From: a virus
Virus genome (UHGV): UHGV-0078433
DNA: 37,911 nt
Strand: one strand, 5' to 3'
Shown: one piece after another, positions 30,451-33,988 of the stretch
Layout: each line of letters begins with the position of its first letter
How positions within the stretch are numbered: the first letter of the stretch is position 1
Notes under the pieces: model-generated
The model's database searches: none
The model's input: only the letters and a program-made list of their open reading frames with translations
Told to the model about the DNA's origin: nothing
Translations under genes and position numbers: made by a program

Positions 30451-31101
30451 ATGAATACACAACTGATGGGTGAGCGTATTCGCGCTCGCAGAAAAGAACT
30501 CAAGATTAGGCAGGCTGCCCTTGGCAAGATGGTTGGCGTGTCTAATGTTGCTATTTCCCAATGGGAGCGATCTGAAACTGAGCCCAATGGCGAAAACCTA
30601 TTGGCCTTAGCCAAGGCTTTGCAGTGCTCCCCTGATTACCTGTTGAAAGGAGAGGATAGTCTTTCAAACATTGCCTATCACAGCAGGCATGATCCAAGAG
30701 GTTCGTATCCTCTAATTAGTTGGGTAAGCGCAGGATGTTGGATGGAAGCTGTAGAGCCATATCATAGGCGTGCAATAGATAACTGGTACGACACAACGGT
30801 AGATTGTTCTGAAGACTCTTTTTGGCTCGACGTTAAAGGCGATTCAATGACTGCCCCGGCAGGACTGAGTATTCCTGAGGGGATGATTATTCTCGTCGAC
30901 CCAGAAGTCGAACCACGTAATGGAAAGCTGGTAGTCGCCAAACTTGAAGGAGAAAACGAGGCGACATTCAAAAAGTTAGTTATTGATGCCGGTAGAAAAT
31001 TCCTGAAACCACTCAATCCACAATACCCAATGATTGAAATCAATGGGAACTGTAAAATCATTGGCGTTGTCGTTGATGCCAAGCTAGCAAACCTTCCTTA
31101 A
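30451..31101 (+). CDS. c2: C2 repressor (LexA-like S24 family, P22-type)
   Basis: Near-identical to P22 C2 as recalled; intact GDSM and KK cleavage motifs. Confidence 0.95.
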   Translation: MNTQLMGERIRARRKELKIRQAALGKMVGVSNVAISQWERSETEPNGENLLALAKALQCSPDYLLKGEDSLSNIAYHSRHDPRGSYPLISWVSAGCWMEAVEPYHRRAIDNWYDTTVDCSEDSFWLDVKGDSMTAPAGLSIPEGMIILVDPEVEPRNGKLVVAKLEGENEATFKKLVIDAGRKFLKPLNPQYPMIEINGNCKIIGVVVDAKLANLP

Positions 31102-31305: not shown

Positions 31306-31415
31306 CCAGAACTTGAGTGGTTTTGGGGATGGCGCGAATTGCAGCTGCAAGACAGCGATCGAGAAGATAAGCACCTCGACGCGTCATGCGCCAAAGCCAC
31401 TTAAAGGAGACCATC

Positions 31416-31721
31416 ATGGTAACCATTGTCTGGAAAGAATCCAAAGGTACGGCAAAAAGCCGCTACAAAGCTCGCAGAGCAGAACTTATTGCCGAGCGAC
31501 GCAGTAATGAAGCACTGGCGCGAAAAATTGCGCTAAAGCTCTCTGGTTGCGTCAGAGCAGACAAAGCAGCATCACTAGGAAGCCTTTGCTGCAAGAAGAA
31601 AGAAGAAGTCGTTCGAAAAAATAGAAGTATTTATTACAAAGATTCAAACCCGTTAGGAAACAAAATACATGCAGTCCAAAAAATAAAATTGTACAGTAAA
31701 CTACCGTACGGTGCTTATTGA
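31416..31721 (+). CDS. N-type antiterminator (P22 gene 24-like) with arginine-rich motif
   Basis: ARM GTAKSRYKARRAELIAERR resembles the P22 N peptide GNAKTRRHERRRKLAIER (recall); start at MVTIVW with GGAG RBS rather than track start 31386. Confidence 0.7.
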   Translation: MVTIVWKESKGTAKSRYKARRAELIAERRSNEALARKIALKLSGCVRADKAASLGSLCCKKKEEVVRKNRSIYYKDSNPLGNKIHAVQKIKLYSKLPYGAY

Positions 31722-32062
31722 GTATGCTTATGGTGAAAAAGACTATTTATGTTAATCCTGACCGCGGACAAAACAGAAAAGTATCTGATAGAGGTCTTAC
31801 ATCTCGAGACAGGAGGAGAATAGCGAGATGGGAAAAAAGGATAGCATATGCATTAAAAAACGGTGTAACACCTGGATTTAATGCTATAGATGACGGTCCG
31901 GAATATAAGATTAATGAAGAACCAATGGACAAAGTTGACAAAGCATTAGCAACACCATTTCCTCGCGATGTAGAAAAAATTGAAGATGAAAAATATGAGG
32001 ATGTAATGCACAGAGTTGTTAATCACGCTCACCAACGAAATCCAAATAAAAAATGGTCATAG
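31718..32062 (+). CDS. Hypothetical AT-rich moron protein downstream of N
   Basis: ORF track; followed by its own terminator. Confidence 0.5.
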   Translation: MSMLMVKKTIYVNPDRGQNRKVSDRGLTSRDRRRIARWEKRIAYALKNGVTPGFNAIDDGPEYKINEEPMDKVDKALATPFPRDVEKIEDEKYEDVMHRVVNHAHQRNPNKKWS

Positions 32063-32085
32063 CCCACTTCGGTGGGTTTTTTATT
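32061..32085 (+). terminator. Rho-independent terminator
   Basis: CCCAC-TTCG-GTGGG followed by TTTTTTATT. Confidence 0.7.
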
Positions 32086-32091
32086 GTCTGA

Positions 32092-32193
32092 ACAAATCTA
32101 ATTTACTACCGCAAGCCACGCAGTGAAATGGGTGTGACTTGCTCAGGCCGCCAGAAGCAACGCGGAAAATCAATTCCAGCTTATTACGATTGA
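32092..32193 (+). pseudogene. Relic 3' end of a lambda-type N gene
   Basis: Frame reads IYYRKPRSEMGVTCSGRQKQRGKSIPAYYD, matching the lambda N C-terminus ...WYSKPGERGITCSGRQKIKGKSIPLI (recall); in-frame stop just upstream. Confidence 0.5.
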
Positions 32194-32200
32194 GGTGGTC

Positions 32201-32338
32201 ATGCTCAAGAAAGTCAAACGCCGACTTTACAAAGAAGGTAGATATTCATGCCAGTTGCCAAAATGCGACACAACAAAATGGAGTGTCGATGATTGGTGTA
32301 ACTGGATAGATAGATACGGAACTTGGTGGGATAAATAA
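32201..32338 (+). CDS. Small Cys-containing ORF (45 aa) with GAGGTGG RBS, below track cutoff
   Basis: Hand-translated MLKKVKRRLYKEGRYSCQLPKCDTTKWSVDDWCNWIDRYGTWWDK. Confidence 0.35.
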   Translation: MLKKVKRRLYKEGRYSCQLPKCDTTKWSVDDWCNWIDRYGTWWDK

Positions 32339-32394
32339 CAGGTAACTTAAGCATATTTACTTTCGCAGCAAACCACTTATTTGAGGACTGATAC

Positions 32395-32637
32395 ATGAGA
32401 GTAAAAACTATGGGCGCAAGCCCATTAAGCGGTCGTATTTTTCAAGGAACATTAAACACTGAAAAAGGAATGTGGGTAGGAAAGAAAGAAGATGTCACCG
32501 AACAGGCAGTTAAGGCAGTAGCCGAACACATGATGATAAAAGACCAGAAATATGCATACGAAACGAAGGATGGCAAATGGCTGATAATAAGCCATCAACT
32601 GGTTGATAAATTACCAGAAGAGTTTATTGCTGGTTAA
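32395..32637 (+). CDS. Hypothetical protein
   Basis: ORF track; GAGGA RBS 7 nt upstream. Confidence 0.55.
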   Translation: MRVKTMGASPLSGRIFQGTLNTEKGMWVGKKEDVTEQAVKAVAEHMMIKDQKYAYETKDGKWLIISHQLVDKLPEEFIAG

Positions 32638-32765: not shown

Positions 32766-32790
32766 GCCCTCCAGTGTGGGGGCTTTTTTA
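32766..32790 (+). terminator. Rho-independent terminator upstream of c3
   Basis: GCCCTC-CAGTGU-GGGGGC followed by TTTTTTATAT. Confidence 0.5.
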
Positions 32791-32855: not shown

Positions 32856-33026
32856 ATGCAACAGTTCGCTATTGCAGGGGCGGCATCGGTTCGCCCTTTC
32901 AACCCGATTTTATCGGTACAGCATTCACGAAAAAATATTTTAACCGGAGCAGACTTTAAACAACCAAGAATGAAAAGTTTGCTCGAAAAGCTTTGGGATA
33001 TTTTGAAACAACAAGGCCGTCCATGA
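32856..33026 (+). CDS. c3: CIII-type protease inhibitor (c3)
   Basis: MQQFAIAG...KLWDILKQQGRP resembles lambda CIII MQYAIAG...LIDILNQPGVP; internal start chosen because the track's N-terminal extension contains a terminator. Confidence 0.7.
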   Translation: MQQFAIAGAASVRPFNPILSVQHSRKNILTGADFKQPRMKSLLEKLWDILKQQGRP

Positions 33027-33193
33027 GTTTTACGGATAACTGGTCAGACGAAGAATTCATTCGTCAGATGAAAGAATTAATCGGTAACGAAGGAGATATT
33101 CATGTCACTTGCAACCACGGTGAAGGAGAGCAAGTTACAGAGACGCATGTACACGCAGCAGGCGTTAATGTATCGCCAGAAGGGAGATCGTGA
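33023..33193 (+). CDS. Hypothetical 56-aa protein (kil position)
   Basis: Start overlaps c3 stop (ATGA); acidic; identity unknown. Confidence 0.45.
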   Translation: MSFTDNWSDEEFIRQMKELIGNEGDIHVTCNHGEGEQVTETHVHAAGVNVSPEGRS

Positions 33194-33280
33194 AGGTGTT
33201 CGCGTATTTTTGAATGCGGCAAAGACTGAAGTATTAAATCAGCGTTATTTCCTTGGGCCATGTCCATTCTGAGGTGAATT

Positions 33281-33988
33281 ATGGATTTGAACAAATTCGA
33301 TGAGCCATTCAGCCCTGAAGATATCGAATGGCGAATACAGCAAAGCGGTAAAACACGCGATGGAAAGGTGTGGGCTATGGTGCTGGCTTATGTCACGAAC
33401 AGGGCAATCATGAAACGCCTGGACGATGTTTGTGGCAAAGCAGGATGGCGCAATGAATACCGCGATATTCCTAACAACGGCGGCGTTGAATGCGGCATAT
33501 CAATCAGGATTGATTCCGAATGGGTAACCAAATGGGATGCCGCTGAAAACACGCAGGTAGAAGCCGTAAAAGGTGGTCGTTCCGGTGCAATGAAGCGCGC
33601 TGCCGTTCAGTGGGGAATCGGTCGGTATCTGTATAACCTTGAGGAAGGTTTCGCACAAACATCTCTCGATAAAAAGCAGGGATGGCACAGGGCAAAACTG
33701 AAAGATGGAACAGGATTTTACTGGCTCCCTCCATCGCTGCCTGGATGGGCAATCCCAGCATCAGATAACAAACCATCACCAGAAAATACCAACCAGAAAT
33801 CACCATCGGTTGACTGCGAACAAATCCTGAAAGACTTCAGCGATTATGCGTCAACAGAAACTGACAAGAAAAAACTCATCGAGCGTTATCAGCGTGACTG
33901 GCAATTAATGGCTGGCAACGAGGAGGCGCAGGCTAAATGCGTTCAGGTAATGAACATCAGAGTTAACGAACTAAAACAGGCGGCATAA
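33281..33988 (+). CDS. Single-strand annealing recombinase: Rad52/Sak-like N-domain with Erf-like C-terminal tail
   Basis: N-domain ...GGRSGAMKRAAVQWGIGRYLYNLEEGF; C-terminal ~60 aa resemble P22 Erf C-terminus (recall). Confidence 0.75.
   Translation: MDLNKFDEPFSPEDIEWRIQQSGKTRDGKVWAMVLAYVTNRAIMKRLDDVCGKAGWRNEYRDIPNNGGVECGISIRIDSEWVTKWDAAENTQVEAVKGGRSGAMKRAAVQWGIGRYLYNLEEGFAQTSLDKKQGWHRAKLKDGTGFYWLPPSLPGWAIPASDNKPSPENTNQKSPSVDCEQILKDFSDYASTETDKKKLIERYQRDWQLMAGNEEAQAKCVQVMNIRVNELKQAA

Follow-up and report, generated by a model that had tools for sequence, protein, structure and literature searches.

A conserved 45-codon gene in the early-left operon of a P22-like/lambdoid prophage and its assignment to the DUF5484 (T4 gp55.4) family

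Results

The 45-codon frame at 32201..32338 on the + strand of the window (the whole stretch of viral DNA that was analyzed, 37,911 nucleotides) is a genuine, conserved small protein-coding gene. Its reading frame is intact, and it is almost certainly a member of the family that includes T4 gp55.4 and Sf6 gp36 and is curated in Pfam as DUF5484, an identity for which Pfam and PHROG matches, identity to Sf6 gp36, and the pN/pS ratio all argue. The gene is already known, being annotated in reference phages and belonging to a curated family, and that family is common to temperate lambdoid and P22-like phages and to virulent T4-like, N4-like, and T7-like phages. The overall explanation set out below, which joins this identity to a mode of expression and to host binding, is in our judgment quite likely to be correct as a whole.

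The ATG lies at 32201 and the TAA stop codon at 32336-32338, and the 45-residue product (MLKKVKRRLYKEGRYSCQLPKCDTTKWSVDDWCNWIDRYGTWWDK) has a mass of 5.7 kDa, a pI of 9.37, and a net charge of +5 (11 Lys plus Arg, 6 Asp plus Glu). It contains three cysteines (positions 17, 22, and 33), five tryptophans (27, 32, 35, 42, and 43), and no histidine, and its predicted first helix is rich in lysine and arginine; an earlier sequence-only reading of this DNA, which had described a basic peptide with three Cys and several Trp, was accurate on composition. That reading had also pointed to a GAGGTGG motif at proper spacing before a 45-codon ORF, and both are present. We identify the motif (32192..32198, + strand) as a Shine-Dalgarno sequence: it ends 2 nt 5′ of the ATG, with its GAGG core 5 nt from the ATG, and in the best duplex predicted, the 16S rRNA tail pairs with the 20-nt upstream segment at an energy of −8.5 kcal/mol, a value reached by ∼2% of random 20-mers from the window. 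It is conserved in related loci, with TTGAGGTG kept in 70 of 82 and TTGAGGTA in 9 more, and the window has 1 nt fewer between this motif and the ATG than the majority form. An alternative GTG start at 32195, which appears in the ORF listing and would give a 47-residue product, was rejected because it falls within the Shine-Dalgarno sequence itself and because the ATG is the start given in the reference phages.

With 60 ORFs of 25 aa or more overlapping the surrounding 4 kb, the length of the frame is not significant by itself, and the reality of the gene follows from homology and the pattern of substitution rather than from length. Read in the +1 or +2 sense frame, the same DNA is interrupted by stops, and synonymous changes are not in excess there. 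On the opposite strand, an ORF of 60 aa (32214-32396) begins in the variable downstream region.

The window is a P22-like/lambdoid prophage, and its early-left (pL) operon runs rightward on the + strand. Upstream of the small gene, the order is a repressor (30451-31101), an N-like antiterminator (31386-31721, + strand; PHROG 271, with a sub-threshold Pfam N_peptide match over residues 14-67), a Nun-like transcription-termination factor (31718-32062, + strand; PHROG 5632, E=9e-71), an intrinsic-terminator-like hairpin followed by a T run (32061..32085, + strand), and a 76-nt, ∼25-codon 3′ relic of a lambda/Sf6-type N gene (32118..32193, + strand), which was recognized from its translation (ending in ...SEMGVTCSGRQKQRGKSIPAYYD and a stop) and from alignment with Sf6, SfI, and mEpX1. 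Downstream, a conserved spacer of ∼50 nt (32339..32390, + strand) extends to the ribosome-binding site of the following gene, which encodes an 80-aa DUF7446 protein (32395..32637, + strand; Pfam PF24233, 100.6 bits; PHROG 1578). A second terminator-like hairpin and T run (32766..32790, + strand) lie 3′ of the DUF7446 gene, so that this gene and the small gene make up a two-gene segment between two such hairpins. Two overlapping small + strand ORFs in different frames, with provisional boundaries, follow (32993-33193 and 33102-33272; PHROGs 2123 and 1723, "recombinase", E=6e-39 and 5e-34), and then Erf (33281-33988), SSB, Abc2, and others, with the integrase last. The tandem of N-like and Nun-like genes is the same as that formed by mEpX1 gp40 and gp39 and is notable because in HK022 Nun is found in place of N.

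The 82 related loci differ in what surrounds the small gene. In 67 of them a complete N gene ends 7 nt before its ATG, while the order found in mEpX1 (Nun-like gene, terminator, N relic, small gene) occurs in 10 loci and in the window. The relic cannot be translated as N in the window because of an in-frame stop upstream; its TGA (32191-32193) overlaps the Shine-Dalgarno sequence of the small gene, and it evidently travels with the small gene because the ribosome-binding site of the latter is contained in it. Directly 3′, at least 10 different genes were seen (ral in 33 loci), and the DUF7446 gene is the neighbor in only 4 of 82 and lies outside the conserved segment. Because conservation stops at the ribosome-binding site of the next gene and the next gene varies, the right-hand mosaic joint is placed within 32339..32390. 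As judged from these alignments, the mosaic cassette is the 3′ end of N, the ORF, and the ∼50-nt spacer. The relatives carry a near-identical string, TTGAGGTGAG(N2)ATG, at both cassette ends, once at the gene's own start and once at the start of the variable downstream gene (1570-1600 and 1775-1800 of the Sf6 locus, equivalent to 32185-32203 and 32380-32397 of the window), and these repeats may be a microhomology that promotes module exchange at gene starts.

Family membership is supported by profiles and by pairwise comparison. The protein matched DUF5484 (PF17583) at 46.7 bits against a cut-off of 27, with residues 5-42 aligned to positions 3-41 of the 43-position model, and PHROG 1871 with E=1.4e-22 over residues 1-43 of 45; every position of the signature K6, Y15, P20, W27, W32, I36-D37, G40, and W42 (window numbering) is present. 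The window protein shares 100% identity with the product of Sf6 gene 36 (NP_958212), whose record describes it as "similar to phage T4 gene Orf55.4", and 53% identity over 40 residues with T4 gp55.4 (AAD42495) by BLASTP (E=2e-15; tblastn against T4, E=4e-7). The DNA here matches parts of phages Sf6, SfI, mEpX1, N7, and phi458 at 95-98% identity and was found in 212 of 5426 complete E. coli genomes. Searches with tblastn matched 1065 phage records, with query coverage of at least 80% in 1018; most are T4-like phages of Escherichia, Klebsiella, Shigella, Yersinia, and Enterobacter; weak matches (E=0.03-0.06) were to the N4-like phage IME11 (E=0.06) and the Pseudomonas autographivirus phiGM22-3. 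HMMER was run exhaustively against 1.84 billion cluster representatives and returned 55 clusters (50% identity) at E≤1e-3, and all 49 of the trimmed representatives matched DUF5484 with no other recurrent match (Pfam scan, E≤1). A word-indexed protein search gave little besides close relatives, and a search of genome contigs for related loci found no relative. No known anti-phage defense protein (PADLOC HMMs) matched at E≤1, and a literature search on DUF5484, PF17583, PHROG 1871, and gp55.4 found no functional account among the papers covered.

In alignments of 51 and 49 family representatives, P20 and G40 are invariant, conservation reaches at least 90% at K6, Y15, W27, W32, I36, D37, and W42, and L9, Y10, G13, T24, and D31 are commonly conserved. 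The family is defined by the residue types Trp, Tyr, Pro, and Gly. The AlphaFold2 model, built on the alignment of 51 sequences, is confident (mean pLDDT, 85.8) and consists of a helix (residues 3-12), a strand (15-17), a second helix (29-39), and a second strand (40-42). Nothing meaningful was found by Foldseek against the PDB (best E=6.5) or by a profile search of PDB sequences (best E=2.4), and a BFVD structure search returned only uncharacterized family members. The extra parts of longer family members contain no recognizable Pfam domain, one of these members has a weak, sub-threshold match to a DnaJ-type CXXCXGXG motif, and one of the sequences retrieved (P0038) is low-complexity junk.

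The sequence-only reading had stressed the cysteines and the basic charge, and although both are present in the window protein, they proved to be specific to its clade and do not define the family. Net charge among the representatives has a median of 0 (range, −6 to +5), 55% have a pI below 7, and none is as basic as the window protein. This distribution bears on the proposal that the product, being basic, binds nucleic acid, for example as an accessory factor in transcription or antitermination with RNA, DNA, or RNA polymerase as its target. Such a role would suit the charge of +5, the Lys/Arg-rich first helix, the position directly after N in most of the related loci, the overlap of the IME11 homolog with the end of the phage RNA polymerase gene, and the location of the T4 homolog near gene 55. 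However, the family as a whole is not basic; the structure of the cassette accounts for the linkage to N, because the ribosome-binding site of the small gene sits within the end of N; the match to IME11 is weak; and other homologs stand in unrelated contexts, including small-ORF arrays and a primase/helicase region. Generic charge-based binding of nucleic acid as a property of the family is ruled out by the charge distribution, and a nucleic-acid-binding role for the product is, in our view, unlikely.

A zinc-binding or redox peptide, in which the CX4C...X10...C arrangement would bind a metal or form a disulfide, is less credible still, and we consider it very unlikely. The evidence for it comes from the lambdoid relatives, where the three cysteines are kept in all 80 copies, C17 even through a synonymous change from TGC to TGT, and from some distant members that are fused to Cys-rich, zinc-ribbon-like N-terminal segments (P0024, P0041, P0045, and P0049). 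Across the 49 representatives, however, the three columns hold Cys in only 59%, 8%, and 10%, with Phe/Met/Leu, Val, and Ile/Val being the usual residues, and 14 members, T4 gp55.4 included, have no Cys at all. Because these positions are hydrophobic in other members, the cysteines are most likely core residues rather than metal ligands. Moreover, a zinc finger or ribbon needs four ligands, whereas this protein offers three Cys and no His and the family shows no conserved fourth ligand; the fold is predicted with confidence without a metal. As a trait of the family, a zinc or redox site is ruled out by the lack of Cys conservation, though a metal or disulfide role confined to the lambdoid clade, whose 80 copies all keep the three cysteines, is conceivable.

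Conservation of the frame and the synonymous pattern in related phages had been proposed as a check by the sequence-only reading. The frame was open in all 80 of the lambdoid loci (IMG/VR and GenBank), and these loci contained 9 synonymous and 12 non-synonymous variant sites out of 22.7 and 106.3 available, giving a pN/pS of 0.28 (binomial p=0.006) in the small-gene frame only. Among 16 T4-like loci, 24 synonymous and 14 non-synonymous variant sites gave a pN/pS of 0.13 (p=2e-9), again in this frame only. The frame is therefore conserved, as the sequence-only reading required, and under purifying selection in two independent clades. Constraint is not absolute: in 6 loci the otherwise invariant proline is altered (P20Q), and several E. 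coli prophage variants (P0003-P0007) keep the first 19-38 residues and then continue into unrelated sequence, which indicates recombination joints or truncations within the ORF in some prophages. Together, the chimeric or truncated copies and P20Q suggest that the gene is easily lost, only moderately constrained, and dispensable in prophages.

It might still be argued that the frame is a chance ORF or a decaying relic whose conservation reflects recent shared DNA ancestry only. ORFs of this size are common by chance, some copies are broken as just described, and the lambdoid copies, at 95-100% identity in DNA, carry little information. Automatic annotation offers the gene no help either: NCBIfam has no model that matches the protein, and RefSeq/PGAP leaves the gene unannotated in the two copies inspected (NZ_CP185938.1, 1252-1389, and NZ_CP083512.1, ∼852-989), the DNA of which is 98.5-100% identical to that of the window. 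Against this stand homologs at 35-55% protein identity in unrelated phage groups, where megablast DNA alignment is absent for the region; a synonymous excess seen in two clades and in one frame only; a curated Pfam family matched above its threshold; and a confidently predicted fold. A chance or relic origin is thus exceedingly unlikely, and with the missing NCBIfam model the two RefSeq copies instead exemplify a real small gene that automatic annotation can miss. The sequence-only reading had called the ORF unlisted, and with respect to the literature this does not hold: the gene is annotated in Sf6, SfI, and mEpX1 and belongs to DUF5484 in Pfam and to PHROG 1871, although these two E. coli prophage copies lack an annotation.

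Discussion

Among named phages, the closest counterparts of the small gene are Sf6 gene 36, SfI gp44, and mEpX1 gp38, which are 138-nt coding sequences at exactly the same place, with the same start codon, the same ribosome-binding site, and the same position in pL after the N region. They differ in what precedes them, as the small gene directly follows a complete N in Sf6 and SfI, whereas in the window and in mEpX1 the preceding elements are a Nun-like gene, a terminator, and an N relic. The likeness to T4 gp55.4, a founding type of DUF5484 and PHROG 1871, is more distant: both proteins are ∼45 aa long, share the conserved residues K, Y, P, W, W, I-D, G, and W, and are encoded among small early or middle genes. 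On the other hand, T4 gp55.4 lacks Cys at the three positions, is not basic, and belongs to a virulent phage in which the context is the nrdH-to-gene 55 region, its gene lying four genes upstream of gene 55 (late sigma factor). It has been listed among transcripts called early-to-middle infection functions (preprint 10.64898/2026.03.01.708804). Around the distant homologs, small hypothetical genes are arrayed in a single direction, as is typical of early regions. In one case the homolog is flanked by genes for a primase and a helicase, and in another it comes after an NrdG-like radical-SAM gene, an arrangement also seen in T4.

The location of the small gene also invites comparison with lambda Ral and the other small pL accessory genes, which occupy the same stretch of pL. 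In lambdoid phages, such genes are small, non-essential, and delayed-early, and they are exchanged as mosaic cassettes. The sequence-only reading had noted this ral-like location, and as a statement about position it holds, since the order in Sf6 is N, gene 36, ral and since ral is the next gene in two-fifths of the related loci; it does not extend to kinship. That the product is itself a Ral-like restriction-alleviation protein has hardly any likelihood, as location in the N-to-ral stretch is the sole argument for it, whereas BLASTP against Sf6 Ral gave no alignment even at E≤100, the family assignments differ, and in 33 of 82 loci the small gene accompanies ral and does not stand in for it; the absent alignment and the co-occurrence rule out kinship to Ral.

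We return to the small gene as a DUF5484 member with its own place in the pL operon. From its position, it would be transcribed from pL as a delayed-early gene, and because an intrinsic terminator precedes it in the window, its expression should need N antitermination. Translation would start from the gene's own strong Shine-Dalgarno sequence, and as the N stop codon lies inside that sequence in most relatives, translation may there be coupled to that of N. We consider this logic of expression (delayed-early, N-dependent, and with its own ribosome-binding site) likely.

The product is predicted to be a soluble mini-protein in which helix, strand, helix, and strand would pack around an aromatic core of L9, Y10, Y15, W27, W32, I36, and W42, with turns modeled at P20, G13, and G40. 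Because the protein is too small for an enzyme, varies in charge across its family, and is always encoded among small early accessory genes, we speculate that it binds a conserved host macromolecule stoichiometrically and serves as a host-takeover or counter-defense accessory factor that is dispensable for growth. We offer stoichiometric binding of a host macromolecule as a tentative mechanism, and we count against it that the neighboring genes in distant phages encode uninformative hypothetical proteins. A broader form of the proposal, that DUF5484 is an uncharacterized mini-fold that neutralizes one conserved gamma-proteobacterial target early in infection across phage lifestyles, with the lambdoid copy as a portable cassette, is a conjecture that we think rather doubtful. 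Were it true, the target could be a defense system or a core host enzyme, and the lambdoid cassette would move between phages through the ribosome-binding-site-like strings at its ends.

As a discovery, the small gene carries little weight, since it is already annotated and its family is curated. DUF5484 is nevertheless unusually widespread, spanning temperate and virulent enterobacterial phages, and has a confidently predicted fold without a solved counterpart, and it is a cheap and reasonable candidate for early-protein screens of toxicity, binding partners, and counter-defense. Among the genes that follow the cassette, one belonging to its variable cargo was observed in NZ_CP185938.1, where a gene annotated as "Nmad5 family putative nucleotide modification protein" (1447-2070) lies 3′ of a small gene identical to that of the window.
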